A DNA stretch of 64,000 nucleotides, the filler included, from Stramenopiles sp. TOSAG23-6 (lineage: Eukaryota): the NCBI GenBank assembly GCA_900128565.1. It is 12 parts of 12 records of this genome, joined end to end, with 100 filler letters (N's around TTAATTAATTAA, not from the genome) between each part and the next. Parts side by side here need not be neighbours in the genome. Positions count along the whole stretch, not along the records: positions 37,735 to 43,004 come from LT636942.1; 11 more parts are not named here. One strand, given 5' to 3'. The stretch's first letter is position 1. Each line of letters begins with the position of its first letter. Under the pieces are notes generated by a model. That model did not search any database and was not told the DNA's origin. It was given only the letters and a program-made list of their open reading frames with translations. Shown one piece after another: positions 198 to 63,943 of this stretch. A program made the translations under genes and the position numbers.

Positions 198-2414
198 TTA
201 TTGTTTTCTTCTTCTTCTTCTAAACTTTGGACTAAATCTTGAGAGGAAACTTCTCTTTTTCTTCAACTCTCCCTTTTTACTATTTCTAGTAGAAACTTTA
301 CTTGGAAAATTAGAGCCGCGTGCAAATAGTGGATTATCATGGGCATACTCAATAATTGCAACGTCTGAAGCTGAAGTACTATTTAAAAGGGCTTTTGATT
401 TAGTATCGATTCTTTCTTTTTCAAAATGAATCTTTTCATCTTTCAAAGTAGGCACCATAGTATTTTGAAAACTATTGGAATTGCCATGATCATTATACAT
501 GGACCTTCTTGAATTTATCAGACCTGAAAATGAGAATGACTTCATTCCTTTACTTTTATTTATTATTCCTCTACTATGTTGCAATTTTGGCTTACCAAAC
601 ACCCGTCTGGCTTTATTTGATGTTTTGTAAGCAGTGAAAATACCCCAAGGCCGAACTGCACTTTTTATTGTGTTTTCTGCTTTTATAATCGGATAAGACT
701 TACGTGGCATCATTTTTAAATCAATTAAAGGATTTGACCCTTCAATCCTAAATGTGTTATGTATACGCTGTAATTTGTTTTTACCTTGTATACCTATTTC
801 ATGTTTATCTCGTTCTGAACTATCATTGCTTTGGATATAGTTTTCTATTAGTTGCACGTTTTGCTCTTCATATTGATTACCATCAACGACATTCTTCGTT
901 TCATAATTTGTATCTGAGACAGCTTTATCAATCATGTCATTCGCCAATTCTTTTGCAATATTATCTAATGTTAAAGTTGTTTTTCTACCTAAAATACTTG
1001 CCGAATCTTTCCAAACAACATTTGATTCTTTAGTTGGCAAAGTATTCACATAATCTATTTCGTGTGCTGTATCATAATTTATTTTATTTGTATGATAATC
1101 TATTTGATGTTTTTTATTTGTAGGATTATAATCTATTTGATGTTTTTGATTCGGTGACATTAGATACATTTTTACACTCTCTAGTATCCGAATTTGTTCT
1201 ATATAAGCCACAACACCTAGGTCTATCAAACATTCTATGTCAAGCTGACATAAAATAGCACCATCTATGTCTTCTTCTTCAAAAGCACGTTTATGTATTG
1301 TGAAAAAATATTTCAAAAAAATCGTTAGGTACAAAATTTCATACCAAAAAAAAATTGATTCATGATGAAAACATACATGTTTTGACAAATCCGTTTGTTC
1401 TAACCACACTAAAACTTCCTGGGTGTTCCATAAAGGTAAATAGTGTGCCATACGTGTAATATAAGCCTCTGTTGGTGGTAACCACAAAGATGGTTTGTCG
1501 TCGTACTCGGAGGAAATTTGTTCAATCATTTGTGTTTTCCTCTGTTTGGAGTATTTTTCTATGACGTCATCATCAATAAAGCGAACATTTTTTATATTAT
1601 GGAAAACTTTTTCATTTGAGTTTGGGATACTATTCTTTGATATTTTAAGTCTTTCCTCTTCAAAACGTACTGTTTTTTTACTGAACTTGGAATTTAGGTT
1701 ATGAGCAATCTTCAATTCTGCACTTGCAATTTTCATCACTAAATTTACAGAGTTTTGTGTGACAAAACAATCTAATGAATGAGCTGTAATACTCTTATGC
1801 AACTTATATGCCAAACTTGCGCTAATACTATCACCAGAAGGAACACTTCTAATTGTTTCTAAAAACTGATAATTAGTCATCTCTTTGACAGGACTTGATT
1901 TGCTACCAGAAGTAAACACATCAAGCATCATTGCAGAAAAAATAGTAATGAACGCCGCTTCTTCCGAGCGGAAAACAACAAAATTTGAATTAATAAATAC
2001 TGATGCAAATGCACGAGCTACCATTTGAATCACTGAATAGTCTTCGACAATTTTAAAGAAACCCAAAAAATGCCGAAGCGAATGCTCAAAAGAACTTCGC
2101 TGGGGAAGCCTTGATTCCCACGCAAAAGCCTTTAGCAGATGGTAGGAAGAAATTCGTTTTGAAGCTGTTAAAAGACGCCCTAATAGAATCTTATCTAACT
2201 TTTGAAGTCTCTTCATTGATATAATATAGTACGCTATTGTATGATAATCTCTAAGTGAATCTATCAACCCATAATCAATCAGAAGCAAGATTGCAGCTTC
2301 TGGGCTCTTTTTGAAAAGTTCGATAAATTCTTCTTCAACTTGAGCTTCATGATCAGAAGACCATTCCCACATTACAGTATTGAAAAGCCTAGTACCACTG
2401 TATTTGTCATACAT
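198..2414 (-). CDS. Sec7-like domain + SAM domain protein; 2 exons (in-frame intron 1293-1376)
   Basis: N-terminal half resembles a Sec7 ARF-GEF domain (LDKILLGRLL, FEHSLRHFL, FRSEEAAFITIFSAMML). SAM motif WNTQEVLVWLE..DLSKH/KRAFEEEDIDGAILCQL becomes contiguous after removing 84 nt. Confidence 0.7.
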   Translation of the reverse strand: MYDKYSGTRLFNTVMWEWSSDHEAQVEEEFIELFKKSPEAAILLLIDYGLIDSLRDYHTIAYYIISMKRLQKLDKILLGRLLTASKRISSYHLLKAFAWESRLPQRSSFEHSLRHFLGFFKIVEDYSVIQMVARAFASVFINSNFVVFRSEEAAFITIFSAMMLDVFTSGSKSSPVKEMTNYQFLETIRSVPSGDSISASLAYKLHKSITAHSLDCFVTQNSVNLVMKIASAELKIAHNLNSKFSKKTVRFEEERLKISKNSIPNSNEKVFHNIKNVRFIDDDVIEKYSKQRKTQMIEQISSEYDDKPSLWLPPTEAYITRMAHYLPLWNTQEVLVWLEQTDLSKHVCFHHESIFFWYEILYLTIFLKYFFTIHKRAFEEEDIDGAILCQLDIECLIDLGVVAYIEQIRILESVKMYLMSPNQKHQIDYNPTNKKHQIDYHTNKINYDTAHEIDYVNTLPTKESNVVWKDSASILGRKTTLTLDNIAKELANDMIDKAVSDTNYETKNVVDGNQYEEQNVQLIENYIQSNDSSERDKHEIGIQGKNKLQRIHNTFRIEGSNPLIDLKMMPRKSYPIIKAENTIKSAVRPWGIFTAYKTSNKARRVFGKPKLQHSRGIINKSKGMKSFSFSGLINSRRSMYNDHGNSNSFQNTMVPTLKDEKIHFEKERIDTKSKALLNSTSASDVAIIEYAHDNPLFARGSNFPSKVSTRNSKKGELKKKRSFLSRFSPKFRRRRRKQ
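1293..1376 (-). other. family intron, GT-AT, 84 nt, phase 0
   Basis: cat|GTATGTTTTC...TGTACCTAAC...CACAATACAT|aaa; removal restores SAM domain spacing. Confidence 0.85.
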
Positions 2415-5500: not shown

Positions 5501-7924
5501 ATCATCGTTCGGGAAGGAATGGAACATCCGAAATTCATATTGATTGAGGAGGGGAGTTGTAAGGTCATGACGCGAGCACATCATTCTTCTGGTGTTTTAG
5601 AAAAGGGTGATTGTTTTGGTGAAGATTCCATACTCAATAAAGATCTTACATCTGCAACGATTCTCGTTCATTCGGATATTCTAATAGTTTGGGTAGTCGA
5701 TGGAATTATCTTTGAAGATTTATTACGTCCACGAAAATATTCAATCATTCAAAGAAAATCCATCTTGAGTAAAATTGAATTATTTCGTGATTTGTCAACA
5801 GATCAGTTGTTACTTCTAGCAAATAAACTCGGAGAATGCTCATTTAAAAATGGTACAACAGTATTTTCTGAAAACGAGGAAGCAAATCATGTATGTTTTA
5901 TTTTTTTTTCAATTTCGAGTTTTTTTTTTCGTACGAAATTTTGTACCTAACAAATTTAAGTTTTTTTTTTTTGAATATTTTTCCAAAATACATATGTATA
6001 TCATTATATCAGGTAGCATTAAAGTGTTTACCACCCAAAGAACTCAGCAAAACATTGGATTAGGGTTAGGATTAAAAAATAGCAAAAATGAAACGAATCA
6101 ATATCCAAATAACTCTAATCAATATATTAGTACAATTTATCCAAATAAGATCATTGGTGTAACTGCATTATTATTGAATAAGAATCATTTCTTTACAGGA
6201 ATTGCTGAATCAGGAAAAGAGCAACCAACACAAGATATAGAACTATTTTCAATAAGTAAATTAGATGTGAGTGATATACTATCTATCTTATCTATACCAG
6301 TGATAGAAAGACTTCTAATAGCTCAACTTAGAACATTACCACAATATTACAGAAACTTAAATACAAATCTTGAAAAAATAATAGTTAATTCGATGAAAGT
6401 CAATAATTTTGAAACAGGCAGACACATCATTCCAGGTAATGACTATCCAAAAAATATGTTTTATATTTGTTCAGGAAGTGTCAAGATTATAAATATGTTG
6501 AAACAAAAGAGAAATGATAAAAATTATCCATTTTCAAAGAATTTCTCTACAAACAAAAACGAAACTGTGCATGTTTTTGATGAGAGTCATCATTCCTCAT
6601 CATTTCAAGATAATCAAGATAATGTTTTTGCTGGTGCTTTCTCATCTAAACAACGGAATAAAATTATTATTGCCGGTGAATTCTTTCCGGAAAGTGCAAT
6701 GTACGTTTTTATTATAATTTTTATTTTATTTTTTTTTTTGTAAAACTTTTTTGCACCTCACGAAAGTTTTGAAAAAAATGAAATAATTTTTCACAATACA
6801 TGAGTAAACGCCCAGAAATTGAAAATGACAAATATATTGTCAAATCAAATGCTGTTATAATTAGCTATATTACTGTTTCTGAAGCATATAACCAATTAAA
6901 ATATAATGGGGATAGAAATATGTCGTATGACGACATTAGTTCATCCGATATATCCTCAGATTCATCATATACATCAGATATTTCAGACACAAATCAAAAT
7001 AATGAGGATAATGATACAATGATGCTGTCACGTTTATTACATTCTACAATAAGTGAAGAAAACAATACAATAAATATCGACGCAAATATGACATTTCAAA
7101 AGAATAAAATAGACCAAAAAACAAAACTCAAATGTAAAAAGGATCAAAATGAGCATTTGAAATTGCAATCGCGTATACATCATCAAGAGCTAGTGTCTTT
7201 ACATCAAATAAAGAAAATTTCTCTGCTTGCAAAAATGACAAAATTAATGGATGAATTTATGGTGAAAAAACACGAATTTCATCGGTTACGACATAAACCT
7301 CGAAACAACCGATTATACAAAGCAGAAACTAATCCATATAATCAATATCCTGAAACAAATAGACATAGAAAGTTACTTATGGGTGCTCATATACATATGA
7401 AACGTGAGAGATATTTGAGGAAACATTTGCAAAAAGAAGCAGATAATAAGCGAAAATTAAAAATACAAGAACAAATAAAACAAAAGATAAAGCAAGAACA
7501 AATAAAACAAAAGATAAAGCAAGAACAAATAAAAAAAAGAAAACAGAAAAAACAAGAGCTTTTCAATGAAATAAATTATCCAGGAGTTTTGAATAATTTG
7601 GATTCTCTGAGTGAAATCAGTAAAACATTAGTAAAAGCTTTTGAAAAATTTACTAATGTAGAACGAAAAGATGTGAAATATATGACGCCATCAAGGACAA
7701 ACACTTTGTTTTCATACTCCAGACAAATTGGAGAATATGTCAATGAGGATGACATTTCTCCAACATCTTTTGATCAATATAAAAATAGACATTTTGATGT
7801 TCATGATGGGACACCAAAAAACACGCCTCCAAGTTCTCCTATCAAATATGAGAGACATTTTGATGTTCATGATGGGACACCAAAAAACACGCCTCCTGGT
7901 TCTCCTATCAAATATTTTTCATAA
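5501..7924 (+). CDS. cyclic-nucleotide-binding domain protein, 5' partial; introns 5891-5993 and 6701-6801
   Basis: Repeated cNMP motifs (FILIEEGSCKV..GDCFGE; FSENEEANH+MYIIISGSIKV; MFYICSGSVKI..GEFFPE); three ORFs join in frame after GT-AT removal. Confidence 0.8.
5891..5993 (+). other. family intron, GT-AT, 103 nt, phase 0
   Basis: cat|GTATGTTTT...CGTACGAAATTTTGTACCTAAC...CCAAAATACAT|atg gives ANH-MYIIISG; the first in-frame AG would delete the conserved strand. Confidence 0.88.
6701..6801 (+). other. family intron, GT-AT, 101 nt, phase 2
   Basis: gca at|GTACGTTTT...CACAATACAT|g agt joins ORF 5850 to ORF 6800; degenerate branch TGCACCTCAC. Confidence 0.8.
7786..7914 (+). repeat. 63-nt coding tandem duplication (RHFDVHDGTPKNTPP x2)
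   Basis: Near-identical direct repeat visible in DNA and protein. Confidence 0.85.
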
Positions 7925-13556: not shown

Positions 13557-14402
13557 GGACTTTGGATTCTCCCACCTCGGCAGGTACCGCAAGAATCGAA
13601 TTGGAAGCTCCTACACAGCGTAAATGTCGCTGGGCAGATGATCGCGAGGAGAGATCCAAAATTGATGCAATGATGCGAAATGGTACCCGTGGCAATGATG
13701 ATGAAAATCCTCATCAAAGTCAAAAGATGAATAGTCGTTGGTCTTGTATGTTTAATTTTTTTTTTTAATTTCGAATTTATTTTTTCGTACGAAATTTTGT
13801 ACCTAACGAATTTTTTAAAAAAAAATTTTGAAATATTTTTCCAAATTACATCGGATAGAGATGAAAATTCAGATATCACATTAATTGCACCAAAAGTTGT
13901 AAATTCTCGTTGGTCGAATCAAGTCAATCATGATACAAATTCAAAACATGATTCATCATCATCCACAACAAAAGAAGCAATACTATCAAAAGAAAAATCA
14001 GAGGAAGATTTGAAAAGGGAAAAAGAATTGGATGCAAAAATTCGTAAAATCCGAGAAAAAAACAAAAATGGACAAAAAAAAGGAAAAACGTTACCAGAAG
14101 GATTTACATTAGATCCTTTTGGGAACCCGGTACCTAAACAAAAATCTCAAACATTGCAAAATAATACTGAAAAATCACAGAGAGAAAAAGAAATCGATGA
14201 ACGTATTGCTGCCGTTCGAGCGAAAAATGCAGCTATAAAAGCTGGTACTTGGGTAGATCCAAATTTGACAAATTCTTCAACACAAAAAAAACATTCAAAA
14301 TTAGCTGCATTGGAAGCATCAACAGTACGTTTTAGTTTTTTTTTTTTTTCGTACAATTATCTACATTTATTTTTCATACGAAATTTCGTACCTAACGATT
14401 TC

Positions 14403-14433
<31 letters not shown>

Positions 14434-14677
14434 AAAAAAAATTTCATACGAAATTTCGTACCTAACGATTTAAAAAAAAAAAAAAAAAAAATATTTTTTC
14501 ACAATATATGTTGGTCCTGAACCATCTCAACATTTTTCAGCCACTTTACAAAATCTGTTAGAATCAATGAAAATCAGTTCAGAGGAAACTCAAAAAATGT
14601 CAGATATGAATCAAGAACAAATTTCAAAAATGGAATCAAAGACGCGTTCAATGAATCGCGAATTTCTCGCGGGACAT
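13557..14677 (+). CDS. hypothetical charged protein, partial; introns 13746-13851, 14325-14509 and a donor at 14678
   Basis: Three open segments join in frame on GT-AT removal. Confidence 0.6.
13746..13851 (+). other. family intron, GT-AT, 106 nt, phase 1; upstream exon ends TT
   Basis: tct t|GTATGTTT...TACCTAAC...CAAATTACAT|cg gat. Confidence 0.8.
14325..14509 (+). other. family intron, GT-AT, 185 nt, duplicated branch cassette; upstream exon ends CA
   Basis: aca|GTACGTTTT...(CATACGAAATTTCGTACCTAAC)x2...CACAATATAT|gtt, in frame with ATG 14567. Confidence 0.75.
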
Positions 14678-14977: not shown

Positions 14978-15021
<44 letters not shown>

Positions 15022-25224: not shown

Positions 25225-26601
25225 ATGAAAACAACACGTGTATTTGTTCTTTTGGTTATACTATGTAATACAAGATTTGTACATGCTGCAACAACACCAG
25301 CAGCAGCGAAAATCGATGAAATTGGTTCAATACGACAAGCTCTCAAAAAAACACGACACCAACTACAAGCAAACGAGACCCACGATGATTTGACTGATGA
25401 AACAACGACATTGAATGATATACCAGTACGCACTGTAAATGAGCTTCTCTCTGTACCTGATATCGTATCTCTGTCCACTATAAATAAGAGGATGCATCAG
25501 CGGGTGAGTAATGATTCTGAACCCTTGGCAAGTGGCTTATTCACGAAAGTTGTGAGAGAATTTGGACGATACACCAATGAAGAAGAAATAAAAGAATCTA
25601 CTGAAAAACCAGAAAACGAACCTTTACTAAAGTGGTTATATCGTGTACGAAGAATTTACCGAATGCTAAAATTTCAAATTCCTATTCACTTCAAAAATAC
25701 AGGAAGGGATCTTACATGTATGTTTTTAAAGAAAAAAAAAAGATTTCAATTTTTTGTCTAAATTTTTTTTCATACGAAATTTCGTACCTAACAAATTTTT
25801 CAAAAAAAATTTTTTTTTTACAATACATGGCTTACATGGAAAGAAAACGAAAGCCGTGATGAATGGTTACACCGTATTGAAAGCATCTGGGAAAGAGAAG
25901 CTTTGATTGCATTGTATAATAGTACAAATGGAATTAATTGGAAGTGGAAAACAAATTGGAATACAGATGCAGATATTTGTGATTGGTTTGGAGTCATTTG
26001 TAATGAAGAAGGAAGTGTTATTTGGTTGTTATTGCAAAACAACCAACTAACTGGTTCAATTTCAAATGAAATTGGTCAACTAAAAAATCTCAGAGAATTG
26101 AAATTGTGGAACAACAAACTATCTGGTCCAATACCAATTGAAATTGGTCAACTAACAAAGCTCACACATTTGCGCTTGGAAAACAACCACCTAATTGGTT
26201 CAATTCCAAGTGAAATTGGTCGACTAACAAACCTTCTATATTTGAACTTGAATTGGAACAAACTAACTGGTTCNATTCCAAAGGAAATTGGTCAACTAAC
26301 AAAGCTCAAAAACTTGTACTTGAAAATCAACAAACTAACTGGTCCAATTCCAAAAGAAATTGGTCAACTAACAAATCTTGAAGAATTGGACTTGCAATGG
26401 AACCAACTATTTGGTTCAATACCAAGTGAAATTGGTCGACTAACAAATCTTAAGAAGTTGTTTTTGCAATACAACAAACTATCTGGTCCAATACCAACGG
26501 AAATTGGTCAACTAACAAAGCTCATAGGGTTGAACTTGTACAACAACAAACAATCTGTTTCCAATACCAAGGCTCAACTAAGAGAAATCTTTGGACTTTG
26601 A
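25225..26601 (+). CDS. signal peptide + F-box-like + plant-type LRR protein; intron 25718-25828
   Basis: MKTTRVFVLLVILC signal; LNDIPVRTVNELLSVPDIVSLSTINKRM; spliced frame leads into EREALIALYNSTNG..W..CDWFGVIC and about seven 24-aa NxLxGxIPxEIGxL repeats. Confidence 0.85.
25718..25828 (+). other. family intron, GT-AT, 111 nt, phase 1
   Basis: aca t|GTATGTTTT...TTTCGTACCTAAC...ACAATACAT|gg ctt; contains an in-frame stop; removal fuses ORFs 25165 and 25903. Confidence 0.87.
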
Positions 26602-27072: not shown

Positions 27073-29328
27073 TACATGTGGCAATATCGCCCTTTCTTCC
27101 ACCTGTAGCACCACCAAAGCCTCCACCAAGGCCAAAATCCGTGCCTTTCTTCTTTCAATTACCGACGAATAAAAAACAATTTAAAAAGCATGTTTCTCGA
27201 CTTAAGAATCAATCCAATGACAGTAAGAAAACTATAAAAAGTCGTGCTCAAAATACAAAAAACGTCAAAAATATCAAATTTGAAAAAAAAACTACAATTC
27301 CACAACGTCCACATCGTAAAACTCCGCCTCCTTCTCCCCCGCCAAGAAGAGATTTGTTACATAAATTTGATATATATTCCGATGCACGAAATAATGGTAA
27401 AAGTGTCAGTTCTGCGGCCAAAATTATTTTCCCTTTGTTAGAATCAACAGAATACAATACAAAAAATGTATTATATGAAACTCCGTCGCATGTAGAAGAA
27501 TTGATACTCAAAAAAAATAATGAAATGGAAATTCTCGTCTCGCAAATAAAATGTTTATTTTCGCATATAGAACAAGAAAATATTCGAAATATAATGATTC
27601 CAAGAACACGAAATATTGTTTTAAAATATGGAAATTCTGGTACACATTGTGTCCGAAAGTTATGTAGGTTTTCATTATGAATTATAGCAAATCCTGTGGT
27701 TTTTATTTATACCTAATGAATCCTAATGAATTAATTTTAATTTATACCTAATGAATCCTAATGAATTGTGCACTTTTACAAATATTTTTTAATATACATG
27801 GACGTTTTTATTAAAAATTTACCCTGAAGCTTGGAAAAGTTCTTTTAGTCACTTGAATAATTGGAAAAGTTCTTTTCAAAGTTCTTTTCAAAGTTCTTTT
27901 TGTCATTTTCATGATGGAGATGTAGGAAGAGTAGATGAAAATTTTGATACTCATTTTGATTTAAATGATTTTTCATTTATTCAAACAACAAAAGAAAAAA
28001 AAAGTAAAAAAGATGCTAAAACTCACGATATTACGAATGAGAATGTACAATCGCATAATGATATTACTATAAATTTGCATAAAACTCATTCAAATAAAGA
28101 TATAGAAAAAACAGAAAATTTAAATGTTTCAAATAAAGATATAGAAAAAACAGAAAATATAAATGTTTCAAACTTTTGCTGGGTTTGGGATTGGAAAGAT
28201 GATCAATCATATTTAGGAGACATTAACAAGGATATGTTAAATAAATCTGGAAACGAAGATATTGAAGAAAAGACCCAAATTCAACGTAAAGAAATACAAG
28301 TAAAGGAACATACGAAAATTTATAATGAAACAAATAAGGATGTGGTGCCAAAATATACGACAAATATGGGTAGGAAAACACGGCGAGTTGCTGTTGGTGA
28401 AAGCGGAGATGGAGAAGTGACGCCATCAACTGTAAAAAATAGTATCCCAAAATCTGAAAATAATAATTCTACAAAAGATTTTCAAAAACAATTTGCTAAT
28501 TTAAAAGTTGATATAAAACCAAATACAAATCAGCAAATTAAAAAGGATATACTATACGATAAAAAATCATTTTGTACATATTACACTCATATCGAAGACC
28601 CGTGTTATCATCCAATTGAAAATGGTTCACTTACACATTTGGAGGTGGATCAGTCTGTATTTGAACCTTTACATTGTCAAATTGATGATCAATTTTCAAC
28701 TCCAAATATTCAAAATCGATCCCAAAAAGGTATTCAACGAATGATCCAAGATTCATTAAGTAAAGTAAAAACAAGTCTAGGATGGAGCGATTCAAAAATG
28801 TATAAACAACACCCTGGTGCTGCAAAAGCTATCATTGGTGGCGTATTATCTGCGGAACTTCTTTCATCTCCACTACCTGATGCAAAACATTCAATCCAAC
28901 CGGCTTCTGCTGGCAGCTGGAAAATTGTTTGTGGTGATATTGTTCAAATTTGTGGTCTCCGAAATGATATAGGTTTAAATGGTGTCATTGGTATTGTGAG
29001 GAAGTTGGAAAAACGACGCTCTGATGTTTTATTAGAAAACGGGCATAGAGTCTCTGTATCACATGGTAATTTAGAATATATTGGTCATCAGAACCTTGAT
29101 GAAGAAAGTCATGCTGAATTCTCTGATAGTGATGAATATGATTACTATTCATGTTCAGGTACAAATTCACCTACTACAATAAATACTAATGGTGAAACAA
29201 AAAATGAAAAAACAAAAGGTAATTTTTTATCATCCGTTGATGAATTTGTATCGAATAAGTATAGTGGTAAGCCTACCACTCCAAGTATAAAAACACACTG
29301 GAAACAGTATCATCAGAAAATAACATGA
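27073..29328 (+). CDS. hypothetical Pro-rich/low-complexity protein with KOW/SH3-like C-terminal motif, 5' partial; intron 27664-27799
   Basis: ORFs 27078 and 27853 join in frame (RKL-WTFLLKIYPEAW); GDIVQICGL...LNGVIGIV. Confidence 0.6.
27664..27799 (+). other. diverged family intron, GT-AT, 136 nt, phase 1, duplicated branch region
   Basis: tta t|GTAGGTTTT...(TATACCTAATGAATCCTAATGAATT)x2...AATATACAT|gg acg. Confidence 0.75.
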
Positions 29329-37485: not shown

Positions 37486-37785
37486 ATGTATTTTGGACAA
37501 ATATTTGAAAAAAAATCTAAAAAAAATTTGTTAGGTACAAAATTTACTATAAAAAAAAATCAAATTTGAAAAAAAAATAAATTTGAAAAAAAATCTAAAA
37601 AATTTTGTTAGGTACAAAATTTCGTACGAAAAAANNNNNNNNNNNNNNNNNNNNNNNNNNNNNNNNNNNNNNNNNNNNTTAATTAATTAANNNNNNNNNN
37701 NNNNNNNNNNNNNNNNNNNNNNNNNNNNNNNNNNACGAAATTTTGTACCTAACGATTTTTTTTGAAATATTTTTCCAAAATACAT

Positions 37786-38966: not shown

Positions 38967-40614
38967 TTAATTCTTTTTCTTACATCGATTTAGACGACTA
39001 AGTTTGTGATGAAATCCGTTTCACTTCTTGAATAACCTTACCCAAAATAATACGAACGTGTACACGGTTCTGAAGCATTGTCGGATGTTTTCGAGATACC
39101 AGTGTTAAATTTTGAGACACAGAATCATAACGAGGCCCACATGTATTGTCAGACAATATTTCAAAAATTTGATTTGTTTTGTTAGGTACAAATTTTACTA
39201 TGAAAAAAAAACAATTGGAAAAAAATCATAATGAAAAACGTACATAGCTGAGAAAGTGTTTGTATCATAGATTTATCTAGACCGAGGGCTGGCACATGGA
39301 CTTTTAAAGCAACTTTTCTTTGACCTGGGTGAACTTCTAATTCACTCTGCCGGACGCCTATGTACTCAGCAAATTCATATTGAACTCGAGCACCTCCGAT
39401 GTATGGGTTATGAAAAAATATTTCAAAAAAAAAATCGTTAGGTACGAAATTTCGTACGAAAAAAAAATCAAATTTGAAAAAAAAATAAAACATACATTCT
39501 GGTCGTTCCATCAAAAAAGATTCAAAATTATTTTGGACTTTTACTTTACTTACTTGATGATGCATCCATTTATCAAATTTGGCATACCACTGTTCAAGCT
39601 GAAGCAATTTTTTTACACCACGTTTACTGTGTAAAGAGAACAAAACATCTTCCCCACTAGAGTTATAATCATCTGTACCGCCTAGAGCCTATGTATTTTG
39701 GAAAAATATTTCAAAAAAAAAACTTAAATTTGTTAGGTACAAAGTTTTGGTTCAAAAAAGAAACCTTTTGTTTTACCACCTTCAAATGCTTCAGGGCCAT
39801 TATGCTCTGTGTCATCATATGTATAATTGAATAGATCTAATGCTGGATCCTTTGAGAGATAATGCTCATCTAGATCCTCACAAGTAAATCTTTGTCCATT
39901 ATTTTGTACACTCCGAGAAATTTCGGGATGCTTTTGTGCCCATCTGTCATAATACTTATTAATTATTCCATCCATAACACCGCCATCTTTCTCATGGAAT
40001 TCTTTGAATCCAGCACCCATACCATCATCACCTTCTTCCAAATCATCTTCGTCGTCAACGACGCCCACGTTTGTAGAAGGAACCTCTTGAGACAATTGCG
40101 AACTCACATCAAAACCACAATGCCATAAAGCATTAATTACACCTTCTGGTACACCTTTTCCAGTTCCAGATTCACTTGCGTCAACAATATCAGGCAATAC
40201 TTCCTCTACTTGAGCATCAAAAGCATCCATGATTGCTAAAGTTTCCGCATCTAATGTAGCTCGTTCATTTTCTTCAAAGTTTTCACCAAAAAGTTCTACA
40301 GTGAGTTCGTCCATTCGCTTTGTCAGCGCATCAGAGTCAGCCAGCAATTTTTCATCTGACATTAATTCCACTAAAGCATCATAAGCATCCGCCCCAATCG
40401 CATCTTCAAGAGAAGGAATAATACGAGAAGTGCGTTCACTTGTAGCTTCTCTGAGTGCGGTAGCGTACTCATTAGAGAAGCAGCGTGAAGAGTGGGAACA
40501 AAGTATATATTTAGAAGCTTGAAAAGAAGGAGATGTACTACCTATACGTACACCAACATTCTGCAATGGCTTGGATATCGTATGCCTTACGGATCTACAT
40601 GTGGTGTGCAACAT
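38967..40614 (-). CDS. mitochondrial ribosomal protein mS35 (Rsm24/MRP-S28 domain)-like; 3 introns
   Basis: Mitochondrial presequence-like N-terminus; HPGQRKVALKVHVPALGL..LSQL-CGPRYD..LTLVSRKHP..QNR only after GT-AT splicing. Confidence 0.72.
39141..39243 (-). other. family intron, GT-AT, 103 nt, phase 1
   Basis: cta t|GTACGTTTT...TGTACCTAAC...ACAATACAT|gt ggg cct cgt tat restores the conserved LxGPRY motif. Confidence 0.88.
39403..39495 (-). other. family intron, GT-AT, 93 nt, phase 1, in frame
   Basis: gaa t|GTATGTTTT...GTACGAAATTTCGTACCTAAC...AACCCAT|ac atc; perfect 16-nt palindrome; exact acceptor chosen by frame. Confidence 0.72.
39691..39776 (-). other. family intron with atypical 5' half, tentative GT-AT, 86 nt
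   Basis: ggt g|GTAAAAC...TGTACCTAAC...AAAATACAT|ag gct; donor uncertain. Confidence 0.5.
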
Positions 40615-40895: not shown

Positions 40896-43004
40896 ATGAG
40901 GGGTAGCATGCGAAAGTCACCTCCATCTTCAATTTCATCGAGGGAGAACAATAAGAATTCGAAGAATACAAAAGCGAAAGACAGTGGAGTCGACGCATAC
41001 ACGTCGAAGCCCATCGACGCGACGCGGGCAAGAATATTGAAGCTTGCAGCTGCTCGTGAAGCTCGGCGTAAACGCGCTGCTAACTTCAAGGAAGAGCGCA
41101 AGGCGGAAGAAGCTCGCAATCTCAAACAGGGTAGGCCTGGGGATGTAGACTTTCAACGTCTGATCAAAAAGTTCCGTGCAACACAGCTAAAAGTAGCTCA
41201 GCCATATGCTGCACCAAAAACTGTTGGTACCGATGGAGAAAACGCAAAAATAAATATATGTGCTCGTGTGAGGCCTGTAAACGAGAAAGAGAAGCGAAAC
41301 AAATCATTTGCTGCAGTCACAGCATCAAATCCAACAATGTACGTACATGAATGTAAGTTTAAAGTCGATGGCATAACAAAACATTTGGCTAATCACACTT
41401 TTGAATATGACAACACATTTGGCGAGACTAGTAGCAATGAAAGTGTTTACGCTGTGACTGCGCGCCCATTGGTAGAGTTTGTGTTCAAAAAAAATTTACG
41501 TCAACGGAGTCGTCGTGGACTTGGTGGAAATGCTACATGTTTTGCTTATGGACAAACAGGATCTGGTAAAACATGTACGTTTTTTATCATGAATTTTTTC
41601 CTACATTTTTTTCGTACGAAATTTTGTACCTAACAAATTTCGAATTTCGATTTTTTTTATAATACATATACAATGAGTGCCCTTCAGGTAGAAGCCGCTC
41701 GTGATATGCTAGATATGTTAGAATTACCTGAATATAGTGGTTTATGTCTCAATTTATCTTTTTTCGAAATATATGGTGGTCGGGTGAAGGATCTTTTACA
41801 TGAAGAGTCTGAGCTTTTGCACATCCGAGAAGATGGGAAGGGTGTAGTTCATGTCCGTGGTCTTCGTAGTACTCAGGCTTCTACTGTAGATGAGGTACTC
41901 AGTCTCATCGCACGAGGTAGTAGTAAACGAAAAACTGAGGCAACTGCCATTCACGAGCAATCCTCACGATCACACGCAATATGTAATTTAGAACTGCGAT
42001 TTAAAAATAATGGGAAAGAATATGGGAAGTTATCTTTAATTGACTTGGCTGGAAGTGAAAGAGCTTCCGAAACTGTTAAAGATAAGGGAAAGCAACGACG
42101 CGTCGAAGGTGCAGAAATCAATAAATCTCTTTTAGCACTGAAGGAATGCATTCGTGCTCTGGATAAAGGTTTGACTCATGTGCCTTATCGTCAAAGTAAG
42201 TTGACACTAGTTCTCAAGGAAGCATTCTTCCCAGGTGCCCGAACGACTATGATAACAACAATTGCACCAACTCAAGCTGACCAAAATCACACACTCAATA
42301 CGCTGAGATACAGTAATCGTATTAAAGCAAAGGGAAATAGAGGAGACACAGGTAAAGCATCTTTTACAGATACAAAAAGTGATATTGATGTTGTAAGAGC
42401 TCGTGAACTTGAAATAAAATTAGCTGCATCTCGAAATCTATCCCCACCCCATGTAGAAGGCAATACTGAATCATCCGTATTAAAAAAGTCAAAAATTGGG
42501 AAGCCTAGAATCCCGCAACCATATTCGTCTGGGTCTATCCCAGAGCCTGCATCACACCCCAAACTAGTTAATAAATCATCCAAATCTTCTAAATTTTCTA
42601 GCAATTCTTCGAATAAGCGAACATCTACCCAAAAGAAATATTCAGATAAGAGTGGTAAATTTGTAAAAGACTGTAGTAATATAGAAAAACGAAATGCTCG
42701 TAAAACAAAGAATGTCAATAAAAAGAAAAGTAAAAAAATTTCGAGTCCTATAGAAAGTGCTATAGGCAGCACATTTGATGAAATGATGGAGACGATGCGA
42801 CGGAATGGATCCACAATAGATAGTGTGATTTCTAGTGAAGATGACGACATGGATTATATGGAAATATTTGATGTAGAAATGGAAGATATGGGAATGGATG
42901 ATTTAGGACTACTTGATGGTATTGAAAGCCCTGAAATTTACTCGAAGGAATATACAAAAAATACAAAAAATACAAAAAATACAAAAAATACAAAAAATAC
43001 AAAA
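40896..43004 (+). CDS. kinesin-13 family protein, 3' partial; intron 41575-41667
   Basis: VHECKFKVDGITK (KVD loop), ATCFAYGQTGSGKT-YTM, SSRSHAI, LIDLAGSER, EGAEINKSLLALKECIRAL, HVPYRQSKLT. Confidence 0.93.
41575..41667 (+). other. family intron, GT-AT, 93 nt, phase 1, directly after the P-loop
   Basis: aaa aca t|GTACGT...TAATACAT|at aca atg gives GSGKTYTM; contains an in-frame TAA. Confidence 0.92.
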
Positions 43005-43152
43005 NNNNNNNNNNNNNNNNNNNNNNNNNNNNNNNNNNNNNNNNNNNNTTAATTAATTAANNNNNNNNNNNNNNNNNNNNNNNNNNNNNNNNNNNNNNNN
43101 NNNNAAATTTCGTACGAAAAAACATTCGAATTTGAAAAAAAATAAAACATAC

Positions 43153-45184: not shown

Positions 45185-48100
45185 ATGGTCCTTCCCGGAG
45201 TCCCCGTCTTACAGGCATCATTACAAAAACTTTCTCATGGGTCAAATGACAAACTAAGTAGCTGGGACACTCACTTCTTCCGCACAAATGTGAGTAGTCG
45301 AAGTCTCGAATATTACAAAAATGAAACGGCCCCATCAGGGAAAATGCTTGGGTCAATACCGCTTGAGGATATTCAAGCAATCACTCGAGTTGATCAGCGA
45401 CATTTTGTCTTGAAAATAAATTTATTGTTGGGTTCAGAAACGCCAGAAACGTCTAAATATTGGTTGGATAAGCTAGAGGGATTTATTCACGAGAATGCCG
45501 CACACCAATGTGGACAAGCTGTAGTGAATGCTCGAAAAGATGTGGAAATGAAGAACAAAGCTGCACGTTCAGTTGAAGGCCCAGCAACGCGACCATCACG
45601 CCGTCGCTCACGAAAACTCCATAAAAGATTAAGCTCTAAAATTGGAAAAGTTGGAGCTAAAGCTGCAAGTAAAGTGAAGGGTGGAGTGACTAGAGGTTCT
45701 CACATTGTTGCGAAGCATGCAGATAATTTCGTGTCGAATTCTCGCGCAACAAAAGGTTTGAGAAATGCTGTAAAGAGTATTGATAATTCTTCACACATTA
45801 AAAAAATACGAAATGCTGGGCATATGGCAACAATTGCTTTTATGGGTTCACCAGACGACATTGGTGGAATTACTTTTGAGGAATTTAGACGTTGGTATCT
45901 TGAAACACAAGTTGATGAAGATATGAGATATATTCAAGAAAAAAATAAGGATAACAAAAATGCTAATCAGGCTGGTTATATGTATAACTTATTTCAAAGG
46001 TTTGACGAAGATAATTCTGGTACGCTTGAGAAGGAAGAAGTTCGAAAACTTTTGAAAATGCTTGGAAAGAAATCAACAGGTTTATTTCGCTTGAAAAGGT
46101 CCAAATTAGATGCGGCCTTTGCAGAGATGGATTCAGATTGTTCTGGAATGATAAGTTTTGACGAGTTTGTCGACTGGTGGCAGTGGAAGCATCCTGAAGA
46201 AAAAGTTGAATGTATGTTTTATTTTTTTCAAATTCGATTTTTTTTTCGTACGAAATTTTGTACCCAACGATTTTTTTTTGAAATATTTTTCCAAAATACA
46301 TGGACTGTAGATCAACGTATTAAATATTTGTTTGATAAAATTGATACGGATAATTCAAATTTACTAGAGAAAAAAGAAGTTAGAAAATTATCTAAACTTT
46401 TAGGTAATCGACTCACATCCATGTGGAAAGGGCAAGATGCTTTAGACCGTGCGTATCAAGAAATGGCATCTAAAAGGCCAGAAAGAATGCCGGACTTTGA
46501 GGATGATGCTGTGGATGAGACGAAAAGCAGTGATATAGATGATGCCGATGATGCCGAAGATGTTATGGATGAATCTAAGAATAGTGAAATTTATGAAGAA
46601 TCTAAGCAAGTGAATAATAATGAATTGGATACAAACGTAGACAAGGAAGCAAATCAAACAAGCATTGCAAACAAAAATGCTGCTACTAAGAAGGAAAGTA
46701 GTCCTCGAACTGTTAGACAAAGGAATATTTATGCTGATTTTCCATCCTCAATCAGTGAACGAGTTGAAAAGAAAAGTTCAAAGAAGAAGAAAAAGAAAGC
46801 GAAACAGTCAAAGGTGGTTAAGAAATCAGTAAAAACAAAACAAAATATGAAAGACGAAAGTCCGCCAATGACACCAGCGCCACCTACGAAGCCATATACA
46901 CCAGATGGATCAAAAACCAAAACAAGACTCCCACCAAATACAAATCAAATTTCAAGTGAACTAACTTTCGATGAAAAGATACCAAAGCAGAAAATTTCAA
47001 CCAAAGAGGTTTCAAATGAAAAACCAACAAAGCGGAAAACTTCAACTGAAAAAACAACAAAGCGTAAAACTTCAAATGAAAAAACAACAAAGCGGAAAAC
47101 TTCAAATGAAAAACCAACGAAGCGGAAAACTTCAAATGAAAAAACAACAAAGCGGAAAACTTCAACCGAAGAAATTTCAAACGAAAAACCAACGAAGTTG
47201 AAAACTTCAACTGAAGAAATTTCAAATGAAAAAGTTTTAAATAAAAAAAAACAACAAACTCCAAAGACATTTGATGAAATATCTAAAGAATTAACAAAGT
47301 TCTACCACCGTTACGCACCTGATCGAGTTCACAAGGTACCTAAAGTATTGAAAAAATACAAAGGCAAGGAAGGCATTCTATACGACATGTACAAGAAAAA
47401 GTACGGCGATGCTCCAGATATTCTACTTCATTTGAAAAACGAGATGGTGGAGGATGATATAAAAGCCATAGAACCAGCAAAAACAACAAACAAAGTACAA
47501 AAGAGTTATAAAAAAGATCCACCAGTCCCCCCTCCGACTGCAGCGGTAAGTATTTCAAATAAAATTACGAAAGCACCACCAGTACTACCTGTTGACAGTA
47601 CACCACCAAGCAGTATAATTGAGAAGGATCATTCAGTAGAGGACAGTGAAACAATGGGGGATAGCTTGTCATTTACTGCAAATCAACACCAAGATGACAA
47701 TAATGGGGATGAGGATGGTGAGGAGGAGGAAGATGGGGAAGATGATGTTGATAAGGAGGATGGTGGTGATGAGGAGGATGATGAAATGGAAGAAGATGAT
47801 GGAGAAAATGATGGAGATGATGGAGAAGATGATCGGGAAGATGATGGGGAAGATGATGGGGAAGATGATGGGGAAGATGATGGGGAAGATGGGGAAGATG
47901 ATGTCGGAGGATCATGGGATGATGAACCAGAACAAGAGAAATTGCTTCAAAGTAATCAGGAGGATTCTAAAACAATACGCAATGTAAAAGAGTACGTAAA
48001 TAATCAATATTCTGAAAGTGACCACGAAGATGATGTAGTCAAAGAATCTGAAGTAAAATATACAGAACCTGAGTCTGAAGAATCTGAATCTGAAGAGGGT

Positions 48101-49059: not shown

Positions 49060-50040
49060 ATGAATAGTTTGAGTTCATCTGAAAATACTTTGCTAGGTAT
49101 TGTCACTGGAGCAGAAGTTCTTTTGGTTGTTCAACCTTTAATATTTTGGAAAAATAGTAAACAACAGTCATTACCCTTTACTGCTAATCCACGTACAATA
49201 TATAGAGGTCTTGGTGCTTCTGTGTCTTCTCAAGCGTCCGTCACTGGTGTGCAATTCTTCACGACTGGCATCATTAAACATTTCTTGACACAAGATTCTG
49301 ATAGAAATCTATCATCAACAGAAACTATATTATCTTCTCTCATTGGTGGTTGTTGTAGTGGATTACTATGTGGACCCACAGAACTTTTAATGATTCAACA
49401 ACAAAGACATGTACATTTTTTATGTTTCATTTCTAATTTCTAATTTTTTTTTATAGAAAATTTTGTACCTAAGAAAAAAAACATTTTTTTACTATTTTTT
49501 TTTGTATAGGGTGGAACATTAATTAATGCAGCGAAACAATTATGGAAAGGAAAAGGAATTACAAGTATGACACGTGGCATTCTTCCATCTATAATGAGAG
49601 AAGGTGTGTATTGTACAGGATATTTAGGTATAGCACCAGTGGTTTCAATACATTTTGAAAATACTTTTGTTAATAATAATAATAATAATAGAAAAAATTT
49701 TGAACATTCTGAACATTCTGAACATTCTGAACATTCAGACACATTTGAAAATTCTGGTGGAATTCGTGCACGATTAGCAGGTGCAATTGTGGGTGGTCTT
49801 TTTGCTGGTATTGTTAGTCATCCACTTGACACAATTAAAACAAAATTACAAGGCGATGGTTTAAGTAAGAAATATTGTACCATCCGTGACGTCATTGTAG
49901 AAACACGAAATAATAGAGGTTTAATCAATGGATTGTATAAAGGAGTTTTATGGAGAAGTGCTACAATAATCACAGCTACTTTACTTATGAATATATTTAA
50001 AGATTATACAGCACCTGTTTTATTTCCTACAAAATTATAA
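49060..50040 (+). CDS. mitochondrial carrier family (SLC25) protein; GT-AG intron 49411-49509
   Basis: QPLIFWKN..Q, PTELLMIQQQ, HPLDTIKTKLQGD signatures. Confidence 0.9.
49411..49509 (+). other. family intron with canonical GT-AG ends, 99 nt, phase 0
   Basis: cat|GTACATTTT...TTTTGTACCTAAG...GTATAG|ggt gga, in frame with ATG 49567. Confidence 0.85.
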
Positions 50041-55024: not shown

Positions 55025-56317
55025 ATGGGGGAAATTCATGCAATAGCAACAACGCAGCAGAAGTTGGACTTTTATAAACCACCTAGTGCTATGAAATTTG
55101 TCACTGAAAAGAAGTACCTCAAAGGAATGAAACTTTTGGACATAGAAAGTTCACAAGACGAGGCTTTGGTATCTCTTGAATTTGCTGCGAGACTTGGGCA
55201 TGCAAAGGCACAAATCCAGCTATATCACATTTATGGAGATCGTACCAGAGCTTTAGAGTGGTTAACATTTGCGGCGGAGAAAGGTGATACCGAAGCTCAG
55301 TACTTGCTTTCCTGTCATATCCGGAAACAGCTACCGGGTGAACACTCTAACGAGACTAACGAGACTAACGAGACTCCTACTTCTTGGTTGACTTTGCTGA
55401 TGAACGCGGCATGCAAAGGCCACGCTGATGCGCAAAGGGAGCTTGCTATTTGTTATTTGAATGGCGTCGGTGTGCTGAAGTGTGACACCAAAGGCTGTTC
55501 TAGATTCGAGGCTGCGAGTCATTGGCTGTTGAAAGCTTCGGCACAAAATCATGCGTCTGCTCAATTCAAGCTTGCGACTCTCTACGTTAGATACGCCAGT
55601 TGTCAGACGAGTGGCTCACTCAAAGAAGTTGTACAATTATATACAAAATCGGCAGAGAATTACAATGAAGCGGCAATGTGGGTCTTGATTGATATATATA
55701 ATAATGGCAAGTTTGGCGAACCAAAATGTCTTAAAAAGTCATTTATGTGGTATGAAAAGTTAGCTAATCTAGGTGATAGTAAAGCCCAATATGAACTAGG
55801 TGTACGTTTTAAGCTTGGCGATGGATGTAGGCAGTGTAACGTGAAAGCATTTGAATGGTTTTCAATTTCAGCTGGCAATGGCAATAAAGATGCACTCAGT
55901 GCTGTTGCTCATTGCTACGAGAGAGGTTGTGGCGTGGAAAAGTCTTTGCTTCAAGCTTCACGATTGCAAAAAATTGCTGGGGAGTTTGAAAGAGCAACGA
56001 AGACAAATGGTGTCGCATATGTACGTTTTAAAAATTGAATTGAATTTTGTTTTTTGTCGTTTTTTGTACGAAATTCCGTACCTAACGATTTAAAACAAAA
56101 AATTGAAATATTTTTCACAATATATGTAGACACTGCGTATGTTTGTGAGTCTGCGCGCACGTGGAATAAGTGCAAATTGCGGCGAGCTATCCAGACATCC
56201 ACCAAGCACAGAACAATTGGGATAAAAAAACATGAGTCAAAACAACACCGGCGCGACCAACGACGACACTGGAAACAAATAAATTGGTCCAAGGGTCGAA
56301 GAAATAATTGGTCCTAA
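55025..56317 (+). CDS. Sel1-repeat protein; intron from 56021 to 56125 (AT) or 56129 (AG)
   Basis: Multiple AA..G...AQ..L...Y..G.G repeats; both acceptors give open last exons. Confidence 0.85.
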
Positions 56318-58794: not shown

Positions 58795-59085
58795 TATCAT
58801 CTACTCTATCTTTTTCAAAGAGAGAAACTTCTGGATAATTTGTAGCATCACGAAACCATGATCGTGCATATGTCATGTACAATAGAGGTCTAATCTCAGA
58901 TGTTTCATTTGCACCACCATAATGCAATGTTCTATAATCATGAATAATTACTGAACCCTATATTTTTTGTACAATATCTTTTTTTGATTTTTTTTGTTAG
59001 GTATGGAATTTTCTATGAAAAAAAAATGAGAATACTGGTTAGGGTTAAAACGTACATTTCCTTCTAGCAAAGATTCATCAAACTT
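58795..59085 (-). CDS. PhyH-family 2OG-Fe(II) dioxygenase fragment; GT-AG intron 58958-59055
   Basis: GSVIIHDYRTLHYGGAN..RPLLYMTYARSWFRD. Confidence 0.8.
58958..59055 (-). other. family intron with canonical GT-AG ends, 98 nt, phase 0
   Basis: aat|GTACGTTTT...CATACCTAAC...AAATATAG|ggt tca. Confidence 0.82.
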
Positions 59086-62509: not shown

Positions 62510-63943
62510 TCATCTATGGTCTAGTATTGTACTACGAAGTGTTTTTCTTGCTCCAGCTCTATACTTGTGATATCGACTTAATACCCTTTCAATCTCTTTT
62601 TCTTCAGAAAAATCAATCTCTATCTTTCTAGTTTTTGGTAAATTTAGACGTTTCTTCAATACGATATCGTGTTCTGTCGTGAAGGAATATGGAGGGGGTA
62701 ATCCCCTACTTGTAGTTTCTACACTATTTTCACGGTATATTTGACGTGGTGGTGTAGGTGGATATATTTGACGTGGTGGTGTAGGTGGATATAATTGACG
62801 TGGTGGTGTAGGTGGATATAATTGACGTGGTGGTGTAGGTGGAGTTCCGGTGTCAATAGACTCATCAATAAATTTTTTTGATCTTTTAACATCGTCTGTA
62901 AGTGGAGGAATTGGAGGGAAACCCGTCATTTTTCCAGTATTACTTAATTCGTTATATGTACGTGAAGTGTCTGAACTTTTTGTTTGTTTTGTTTGTTTTG
63001 CTTGAACATCAAAATTGCTTTTTCTTGCTGGGGATAAATATGTTTGAGAAATTGATTCTAATGACGACTGATGAAAATTAACATTTCTATTTTTTGGCCA
63101 TGCTAATAGTATAGATGAATCATTACTACTTTCATCATTTGTACTAGAAGGATGAATCCTATTTGTATCAAAATCACTGCCAAGTTTTTCATGATACACT
63201 TTCAAGTGTGAAAAATGTGTTTCAGCTCGTTGCTGTTTTACAAGAGGCTCAGGCTTTTGTCTTGTTTCATTCGAATTACTATCCGATAAATGAGATGAAG
63301 ACATTTGTCTTGTTTCAACTTTACTATTTGACTTGTTTTGAGTTGTACTAAAATTGGATTCAAATGAAATATTGTCATCTTCGAATAATGGTGTTTCTTT
63401 CTGAAAAGTATAATTTTGTTGTGGTAAAGATTCTGCAGGCAATTCTGTATTATGAACTATTTTTTCATCTTTGAAATTTTCGTGAAAGGTTGATGTTTTG
63501 TGAAAAAATATTTTTTCAAAACATTGAAATGTGTTAGGTATAGAATTTCGTACGAGAAAAAAAAATGAAAATCAAATGAAAACGTACATTTCGTTTTTGA
63601 TCTGTCTTGATTGTCATTATTACTATCAATAATATGCTTATACTTGGCATGTTGTAACGTATAATTATGTATTTTGGAAAAATATTTGAAAAAAAAACAT
63701 AAATTTGTTAGGTACAAAATTTCGTACGAAAACAAATCGAATTTGAAAAAACATAAAACATACATAATTCGACGAAAGGACATCTTGCATATTTTTCCAT
63801 GTTACCTCTCCCGTTTTTTCAATATCAAATGCACGAAATAATGCTTTCATTCGATGTGTACTAATCTTTAGCTTATATTTTCGTAATCCGTGGCAAAATT
63901 CATCAAAAGTTATAGTATTTGAACGATCTCTGTCTAAACGATA
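62510..63943 (-). CDS. EF-hand protein with PPTPPRQ repeats, 5' partial; introns 63667-63763 and 63493-63587
   Basis: DRDRSNTITFDEF, FDIEKTGEV; three ORFs join in frame by GT-AT removal. Confidence 0.78.
63493..63587 (-). other. family intron, GT-AT, 95 nt, phase 1
   Basis: aaa t|GTACGTTTT...TATACCTAAC...CACAAAACAT|ca acc, in frame with ORF 62510. Confidence 0.83.
63667..63763 (-). other. family intron, GT-AT, 97 nt, phase 0
   Basis: tat|GTATGTTTT...CGTACGAAATTTTGTACCTAAC...CCAAAATACAT|aat. Confidence 0.83.

Follow-up and report, generated by a model that had tools for sequence, protein, structure and literature searches.

A probable introner-like family of GT–AT introns, with a palindrome at the branch site, in a stramenopile-like protist

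Introduction

The stretch of DNA analyzed here (the window, 64,000 nt in full) contains at 39403..39495, on the minus strand, a 93-nt element that interrupts a protein-coding gene. The locus raises the question of what this element is and how its 3′ end is chosen, as it begins like a spliceosomal intron and ends in AT. A first-pass annotation had correctly recognized intron-like insertions with a GT start, a CTAAC motif fused to a palindrome and a YAT end. It further proposed that the acceptor is selected by an RNA structure pairing the two ends of the intron, or by an extended AATACAT signal. The analysis described below suggests that the element is probably a copy of an introner-like family, i.e., a mobile element that becomes a spliceosomal intron where it lands in genes. 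The GT–AT ends are the surprising part; the palindrome is real, yet it is unsupported as a conserved RNA structure.

Introners are described, in passages of a review and a survey, as elements resembling miniature inverted-repeat transposable elements (MITEs), with one splice site often derived from the target-site duplication (PMC11282704; PMC9860276). In the Chrysochromulina-type introner, according to passages of the same two sources, the 5′ site is part of the element itself and the 3′ site is co-opted (PMC9860276; PMC11282704).

Borders of the Intron

The read-through open reading frame (ORF) that includes the element (39185-39688, minus strand, 168 residues) was compared with the 483-residue homolog P0121 by BLASTP. 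The alignment has a single gap of exactly 31 residues, between ..RPE and YIGG.., matching the 93 nt of the element, a multiple of three. P0121 is the sole match of this ORF among longer proteins, and no match was found among proteins of similar length; a representative protein search gave three matches, two of which are translations of other element copies. Read along the minus strand (39495..39403), the element consists of GTATGT, a U-run, TTTCAAA, another U-run, the palindrome, CTAAC, T10, TTTGAAA, TAT, T6 and CATAACCCAT.

A tblastn search of P0121 on the contig indicates that the host gene has three interruptions, all of which are family members. The next one, at 39141-39243, has neither the palindrome (its 5′ arm reads ATAGTAAA) nor the outer stem. 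As the joined sequence SQL|CGPRY matches P0121, this intron must end at the distal ..ACAATACAT and not at the earlier GAAATAT. A further junction lies in the neighboring kinesin gene. With 41575-41667 removed, the product aligns without gaps to all eight kinesin-13 homologs tested, and the Pfam Kinesin profile is continuous over the junction, with positions 1-91 upstream and 89-325 downstream. By these protein comparisons, the intron borders are exact at three junctions (39403-39495, 39141-39243 and 41575-41667).

A Repeat Family in the Window

The element is not unique. The sequence GTACGAAATTTYGTAC, allowing at most two mismatches, has 39 matches at about 21 loci, compared to 0.28 expected, and a count of 39 was reached by none of 100 shuffles. 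A profile built from 11 copies and run with nhmmer gave 78 rows over both strands, which come down to some 40 copies or fragments in sense orientation within 62.7 kb. The host genes are unrelated and encode differing Pfam domains, among them Sec7, a cNMP-binding protein, a leucine-rich repeat (LRR) protein and a kinesin. Removal leaves long open frames on either side for 14 full-length family copies and three further relatives; these are the 17 frame-consistent introns on which the signal counts below are based.

The window strings together contigs that each measure about 5.3 kb and become slowly shorter along it, with N44-TTAATTAATTAA-N44 linkers in between (e.g., at 5307-5406, 37635-37734 and 43005-43104). 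At least 10 contig ends lie inside element copies, for example at 5407, 26990, 37583, 37735, 43105, 48466, 53725, 53833, 59186 and 63949. A high-copy repeat is expected to break an assembly, and the many copies at contig ends thus point to a high copy number. The G+C content is 33%. The ORF domains identified with Pfam are eukaryotic (Sec7, HMG box, RCC1, kinesin, p25-alpha), and the best named relatives of the kinesin-13 are all stramenopiles, with at most 56% identity. On these two grounds, the source is treated as a presumed uncultured, stramenopile-like marine protist. Kinesin exon 2 has no near-identical protein match, the best one reaching 56% identity.

Copies were also sought elsewhere. 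A metagenome scan with an 18-nt motif of the 3′ end gave at least 118 loci, with no family copy among the matches listed; five of the 118 passed a loose filter, and all five were unrelated. A scan of viral contigs gave two chance matches only, and a scan of a genome contig collection gave none.

Splice Signals and Acceptor Choice

The family introns start with GT in all 17 cases and with GTAYGT in 15. The branch motif TACCTAAC is present in 13, and the remaining four carry single-base variants of it. The putative branch A, as read from sequence, lies 32-45 nt from the 3′ end in 17/17, which extends a distance range previously given for six copies to the whole set. U-runs occur downstream of the branch motif. 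Thirteen introns end in CAT, two in TAT and two in TAG. The AG acceptor of U2-type introns is consequently found in 2/17 only, the other 15 ending in AT, and in 13 of the 14 family introns counted no AG occurs between a point 8 nt beyond the branch A and the 3′ end. The family thus appears to be U2-type in every signal except the AG acceptor. Small nuclear RNA (snRNA) genes were absent from the window, in which Rfam detected no families and ARAGORN no tRNAs.

A second AT stands directly upstream of the donor in 14/17 introns, the three exceptions (13746, 14325 and 22558) carrying TT, CT or CA; the repeat measures 2 bp only. While the exon-side AT has decayed in these three, the intron-side terminal AT (or AG) is retained in 17/17. 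This asymmetry fits a 2-bp direct repeat of which the 3′ copy is the acceptor and is under constraint.

The acceptor is not simply the first YAT past the branch, a point of the first-pass annotation that is upheld by the homology-defined junctions and by the comparison of signals over the 17 introns. The same holds for its remark that earlier TAT triplets are skipped: an earlier ..AATAT ahead of a U-run is passed over in most copies, and for 39141-39243 homology proves it. The skipped sites, TAT in nearly every case, are found 17-31 nt downstream of the branch A and precede a U-run. CAT serves as the used site in 13/17 introns and comes after the last U-run and an A/C-rich spacer. The rule ‘first YAT or YAG after the last U-run’ was rejected, as it fails in about 7/17 introns. 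A rule that takes the first CAT lying some 30 nt or more beyond the branch, and failing that TAT or TAG, fits 16/17, and the sole misfit is the TTTCAT adjoining a U-run in the copy at 39403-39495 itself. A signal of sequence and position would therefore suffice for acceptor choice, and it explains the data better than a fold does. The AATACAT alternative survives in part: an extended 3′ sequence signal is viable and closer to the data than the fold, but in its literal form it does not cover the copy at 39403-39495, which has AACCCAT.

The Palindrome and the Proposed Fold-Back

According to the structural explanation, three pairings (GUAU/AUAC, UUUCAAA/UUUGAAA and the central hairpin) present the branch site, place the acceptor and hide the earlier UAU. 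Much of the sequence description behind it is accurate. The 16-nt palindrome GTACGAAATTTCGTAC has no mismatches on both strands and runs straight into CTAAC on the minus strand (39441-39437), and the common T variant retains a G-U pair, on the sense strand only. In the copy at 39403-39495, the minimum free energy (MFE) fold and the centroid fold hold exactly the outer stem, TTTCAAA with TTTGAAA, and the central hairpin. The terminal pair is less sound, because the complementary ends GTAT and ATAC are present but ATAC straddles the splice junction (..CCCAT|ACAT) and thus does not lie inside the intron.

The fold of this copy has a free energy of -9.7 kcal/mol (z = -2.0; 9/200 shuffles were as good), and the strongest one, at 56021-56125, is a 20-bp nested fold around the branch region. 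In general the family folds are weak, from -5 to -20 kcal/mol, with z ranging from +0.62 to -2.72 over 13 copies, five of which reach -1.78 or lower. Over 17 copies, the mean z is -1.04 for the sense strand and -0.52 for the antisense strand (Wilcoxon p = 0.04). The family may thus have some RNA-level folding tendency, although this slight sense-strand excess is of a kind that a U/G-rich strand could give.

Covariation was assessed in an alignment of 34 anchored copies (30 distinct rows) for the central helix and of 18 longer copies for the three-helix model. In the six-pair central helix, 67.8% of the cells are paired compared to 68.5% in column shuffles, with no compensatory pairs and a covariation score of 0.071 vs. 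0.072 in the shuffles. The three-helix model has 74.4% of its cells paired vs. 72.8%, a value reached by 64/500 shuffles, and its covariation score is reached by 24/500. The double changes in this model are AU/UA swaps in poorly aligned A/T runs only, and slid controls have as many or more. The terminal 4-bp end helix has 73.8% of its cells paired and no compensatory change, and the consensus predicted by RNAalifold contains no pairs. Covariation had been named beforehand as the check that could refute the fold; none beyond background was detected, within the power of 18-34 related copies. Shared descent of the copies keeps this power low for compensatory changes, and the 3′ arm looks more conserved than it is because the alignment was anchored on TTGTACCTAAC.

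The word ‘conserved’, as used for the fold-back in the first-pass annotation, does not hold either. All six stem pairs are present in 10/34 copies, five in eight and four or fewer in 16; among the 17 frame-consistent introns the corresponding numbers are seven, four and six. Single changes break pairs and none is compensated. A whole subfamily, recognizable by its 5′ region GTACGTTTTTCATTATGA.. and the 5′ arm ATAGTAAA, is without the palindrome. The two arms moreover decay differently. The 5′ arm GTACGA is intact in 12/34 copies and the 3′ arm TYGTAC in 28/34; in the partner columns, G5 is kept in 16/34 vs. C20 in 34/34, and C8 in 20/34 vs. G17 in 30/34, while ACC and the branch A are invariant in 34/34. 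Part of this asymmetry stems from the anchored alignment, but its direction is clear: the sequence adjoining the branch site is kept and not the pairing. The variant TTTTGTAC and rarer TG/CA variants in either arm are as expected from CpG decay of a DNA palindrome, and the frequent T variant may simply descend from a master copy.

Finally, 39141-39243 skips its GAAATAT and uses the distal CAT with neither helix. The hairpin would therefore be dispensable for splicing, and selection of the acceptor by an end-pairing structure is considered improbable. The palindrome is probably element heritage together with extended context of the branch site. Another complementarity is better preserved: the donor GUAYG can pair with the YGUAC adjoining CUAAC in 91.3% of the cells (e.g., 39491-39495 with 39442-39446, minus strand; columns 69-73 of alignment A2), compared to 78.7% for the palindrome helix in the same alignment and 91.9% in shuffles. 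It shows no covariation because both partners are conserved. This complementarity may be a relic of the element termini, or it may bring donor and branch site together.

Origin of the Family

The proposed explanation is that the element, with a length of 84-111 nt apart from longer composites, would bring its own yeast-like donor GUAYGU, the branch site UACCUAAC and U-tracts. It would stand between two AT dinucleotides, either because of a 2-bp target-site duplication or because it is inserted between A and T. Excision that starts at the G of GUAYGU and ends with the T of the downstream AT would then restore the original mRNA exactly. In this scheme the acceptor would be YAU, mostly CAU, at a distance of 32-45 nt from the branch A and downstream of the last U-tract, with UAG in a few relatives; it would be set by sequence and position, i.e., by the U-tract, the A/C-rich spacer and CAU. 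The 16-nt palindrome would be a consensus feature of the subfamily with the most copies, with the 3′ arm (UUUYGUAC, next to CUAAC) kept and the 5′ arm free to decay. Removal by the spliceosome, the site of the branch, the duplication of AT and the way in which the element moves are all inferred from sequence. A longer target-site duplication was considered and dismissed: flank repeats of 4 nt occur in 2/14 copies (1293 and 63667), none in the rest, and are taken as chance.

Several points weigh against this reading, along with the folding tendency and the alignment limits given above. The evidence for splicing consists of protein homology and reading frames, and P0121, taken from a public proteome set, is itself a gene model and not a transcript. 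An acceptor in AU is at odds with U2-type introns, which end in AG almost universally. As evidence for a duplication, an AT repeat of 2 bp is weak. The terminal inverted repeat amounts to 4-6 bp (GTAY/RTAC, or ATGTAT/ATACAT with flank), and inverted similarity over 26 nt is 12.2 vs. 9.4 expected. The window yielded neither an empty site nor an autonomous partner, and no copy that is clearly antisense or intergenic; the evidence for mobility at the DNA level is modest. Then there is the third interruption of the host gene, at 39691-39762, where the best fit to the homolog (..EPKQ|ALGG..) is an intron that starts with TTTGTACC and has no GT. By comparison with the homolog, the exon here appears to run through ..KGFFFEPK, which itself resembles the U-run and 5′ arm of the element. 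Alternatively, a GT-AG intron can be fitted, with GTACCT of the palindrome as donor and CTCTAG as acceptor.

The same family could also have spread by reverse splicing into transcripts, followed by reverse transcription and recombination, in which case the upstream AT would reflect a preference for proto-splice sites. All copies with readable context are indeed sense-oriented to the gene, the terminal inverted repeats are minimal, and a Pfam scan revealed no transposase or autonomous copy in the window; PMC10996645 discusses intron transposition through circles. However, AT on both sides in 14/17 introns would be the signature of a short target duplication. Copies are also concentrated between genes, in stretches of low G+C that appear to be non-coding (14.7-15.4 kb and 26.6-26.8 kb), and tandem or nested copies exist (14325-14509). 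Most introner families are DNA elements in surveys, as far as passages of PMC9860276 report. Spread through RNA is hence held to be unlikely.

The introner reading can be taken further. The marine stramenopile-like protist would then have a major spliceosome that routinely takes AU as the final intron bases, and genes filled with introns by a mobile element, with the AT target duplication serving as acceptor, the YGUAC-GUAYG pairing joining donor and branch site in cis, and the 5′ arm of the palindrome acting as a donor-mimic competitor. This extended version is speculative and rather unlikely to hold as a whole.

Comparison with Other Introns and Elements

As in the introners of Micromonas, Aureococcus, Chrysochromulina, dinoflagellates and others, the family consists of near-identical short introns at unrelated positions in unrelated genes. 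A further likeness, as far as the available text on introners goes, is that the element holds part of the splice signals, a short direct repeat gives the other site and the mRNA is restored. The family differs in that its co-opted repeat is AT, resulting in an AU and not an AG acceptor, that the repeat is 2 bp long with terminal inverted repeats of 4-6 bp, and that an internal palindrome is fused to its strong branch site of yeast type. In the literature searched, supplements aside, no description of a GT-AT introner was found. Published introner surveys start from annotated GT/GC/GA-AG introns and would therefore miss such a family. In the available text of the single-cell stramenopile paper PMC5778133, introns are mentioned in the methods only.

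Introns derived from MITEs with non-canonical AG-AC and AG-AT ends are known from the tunicate Fritillaria borealis, as stated in part of a review (PMC11282704). From what is given there, they resemble the family in being transposon-derived and lineage-specific and in having non-canonical ends that include a 3′ AT. In this chordate, however, the 5′ end is non-canonical as well (AG) and the ends are diverse, whereas the protist family has a textbook GTAYGT and departs only in the last base of the acceptor.

Budding-yeast-type U2 introns (GUAUGU...UACUAAC...YAG) have the same donor hexamer and CUAAC core. The distance from branch site to acceptor in the family is within the range of yeast introns, and in yeast, structures lying between the two are known to influence which 3′ site is used. 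Unlike in yeast, the acceptor is YAU in 15/17 introns, the branch motif has an extra C (UACCUAAC) and the introns belong to one repeat family.

A shift of the borders by two bases would turn the family into AT-AC introns (ATGTAYG...ATAC), in line with the known A(+1)/C(-1) rule. Both spliceosomes accept introns with AT-AC termini. In 13/17 introns this register yields an identical mRNA, so that homology and frames cannot separate the registers there. It is inconsistent in the other 4/17, with TT, CT or CA upstream in three, and the copy at 39403-39495 would end in CC; GT..AT/AG fits 17/17. In addition, the conserved GTAYGT is the U1/U6 donor register starting at G. U12-type introns have [AG]TATCCTT as donor consensus and TCCTTAAC as branch consensus, 10-20 nt from the 3′ end. 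A U12-type AT-AC intron was rejected, as the family has GTAYGTTTT as donor, with no ATATCC, and TACCTAAC at 32-45 nt from the end, and thus no U12-type features. The AT-AC register is very unlikely on this evidence.

Nonconventional introns of euglenids and hemistasiid diplonemids are probably MITE-derived, and their complementary ends could join the termini, according to passages of PMC12621601 and PMC11282704. Removal of the family elements without a spliceosome, either by such excision or by DNA elimination, would account for the 3′ end that is not AG, the short complementary ends GUAU/AUAC and the GT-less best fit of the truncated copy at 39691-39762. Yet the strong GTAYGT donor, CTAAC at 32-45 nt from the 3′ end and the U-tracts are classical U2-type signals, two relatives end in AG, and the best named protein matches are stramenopile-like. 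Programmed DNA elimination is not known in stramenopiles. Nonconventional introns are without a polypyrimidine tract and have variable ends, as described in part of PMC11282704. Euglenid and hemistasiid introns, in the accounts available, show end dinucleotides that vary, extensive pairing between the termini, few branch motifs and no polypyrimidine tract; the family has constant GT, CTAAC, U-tracts, an end complementarity of 4 bp and no covariation. Non-spliceosomal removal is very unlikely.

Helitron-like elements insert between A and T and have 5′ TC, 3′ CTRR and a hairpin 10-12 nt from the 3′ end. A Helitron-like origin was discarded, as the family shares the A/T flanks and nothing else: its termini read (T)GTAYG and ATAC(A), and its palindrome ends about 40 nt short of the 3′ end.

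Gene Models and Significance

The public coding sequence models P0122 and P0123 translate element copies as protein (MYVLFFF..FVRNFVPN..FFEIFFQNT), P0122 with three such stretches. This suggests that gene models of a related assembly read family introns as coding sequence and that the family could in this way go unnoticed. Gene finders that allow only AG would translate the family introns as Phe-rich peptides, so that systematic errors may exist in the proteomes of such uncultured protists. Should RNA data confirm the junctions, the family would offer a naturally occurring system in which many U2-like introns combine a textbook donor and branch site with an AU acceptor. Such an acceptor would bear directly on 3′ splice site recognition at the second catalytic step. 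It would also extend the introner model to cases in which the target-site duplication dictates a non-AG acceptor.

The introns at 39403-39495 and 1293-1376 (both on the minus strand) are multiples of three and stop-free in the frame of the host gene. Their retention would insert Phe-rich stretches of 31 and 28 residues, respectively, with no truncation. The length is divisible by three in 6/14 full-length family copies.

Features of the Window and Neighboring Genes

Coordinates of the intron at 39403..39495, its parts and the other family members are listed in Table 1.

Table 1. Parts of the intron at 39403..39495 and further members of the family in the window.
Feature	Position	Strand	Basis
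Whole intron, GTATGT ... CCCAT	39403..39495	-	BLASTP gap vs. P0121; frame open on either side once removed
Donor hexamer GTATGT	39490..39495	-	Read from sequence; GTAYGT in 15/17 frame-consistent family introns
Exon AT directly 5′ of donor	39496-39497	-	Read from sequence
Outer arm TTTCAAA, intron nt 17-23	39473..39479	-	Pairs with 39421-39427 in MFE and centroid folds
Central 16-nt palindrome GTACGAAATTTCGTAC; 5′ arm 39450-39457, 3′ arm 39442-39449	39442..39457	-	No mismatches, both strands
Branch motif CTAAC; putative branch A at 39438, 35 nt from 3′ end	39437..39441	-	Sequence only
First U-run (T10) past branch motif	39425..39434	-	Read from sequence
Outer arm TTTGAAA, partner of 39473-39479	39421..39427	-	MFE fold
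Skipped TAT of GAAATAT, followed by U-run 39413-39418	39418..39420	-	Use would break frame and homology
Skipped CAT (TTTCAT) adjoining U-run	39410..39412	-	Use would give GAA TAA stop; homolog reads EY IG
Used acceptor CAT, followed by exon ACATCGG	39403..39405	-	Protein homology (P0121)
Next intron of host gene, 103 nt, subfamily b, ends ..ACAATACAT	39141..39243	-	Junction ..SQL|CGPRY.. = P0121 ..KLCGPRY..
5′-truncated or diverged copy	39691..39762	-	nhmmer match; tblastn of P0121
Family intron, 93 nt, splits kinesin P-loop GQTGSGKT|YTM	41575..41667	+	Homolog alignment, Pfam
Family intron, 84 nt, Sec7-domain gene; palindrome variant GTATGAAATTTTGTAC pairs via two G-U	1293..1376	-	nhmmer, Pfam, frame
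Family intron, 103 nt	5891..5993	+	nhmmer, frame
Diverged family intron, 101 nt; branch region CACCTCAC; different local hairpin	6701..6801	+	nhmmer, fold, frame
Family intron, 106 nt; upstream exon end TT, not AT	13746..13851	+	nhmmer, frame
Family intron, 185 nt; palindrome and CTAAC tandemly doubled, end TAT	14325..14509	+	Frame
Family intron, 103 nt; 5′ arm decayed to TATAAAAA	22558..22660	+	nhmmer, frame
Family intron, 111 nt	25718..25828	+	nhmmer, frame
Diverged family intron, 136 nt; GTAGGT start, TACCTAAT twice, end ACAT	27664..27799	+	Frame
Family intron, 90 nt; branch variant TACCCAAC	46212..46301	+	nhmmer, frame
Family-related intron, 99 nt, end TATAG	49411..49509	+	Frame open with AG end only
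Family intron, 105 nt, end TAT; strongest fold of set, -20.4 kcal/mol, z = -2.7	56021..56125	+	Fold, frame
Family intron, 98 nt, end TATAG	58958..59055	-	Frame open with AG end only
Family intron, 95 nt	63493..63587	-	nhmmer, frame
Family intron, 97 nt	63667..63763	-	nhmmer, frame

The relatives at 49411-49509 and 58958-59055 indicate that the same organism seems to use both AU and AG acceptors. The composite 14325-14509 contains two units of palindrome and CTAAC, 70 nt apart, with long A-runs between them. Another long intron, at about 14676-15103, spans an assembly gap and contains two more partial copies. The copies at 15216-15357 and 26620-26818 (both on the minus strand) lie in stretches of about 20% G+C between or after genes, and are either introns in untranslated regions or intergenic insertions.

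On the contig of the host gene, the ORF at 37766-38917 (plus strand, 384 residues) encodes mostly Glu/Lys/Gln repeats (..KQEDGKQKQEDGE..), and low-complexity ORFs overlap here on both strands. Among the ORFs scanned, it had no Pfam family. Elsewhere in the window, two adjacent ORFs at 33350-34585 and 34874-35764 (plus strand) encode strong BspA-type leucine-rich repeats (Pfam LRR_5, E = 1e-110 and 3e-72, respectively).

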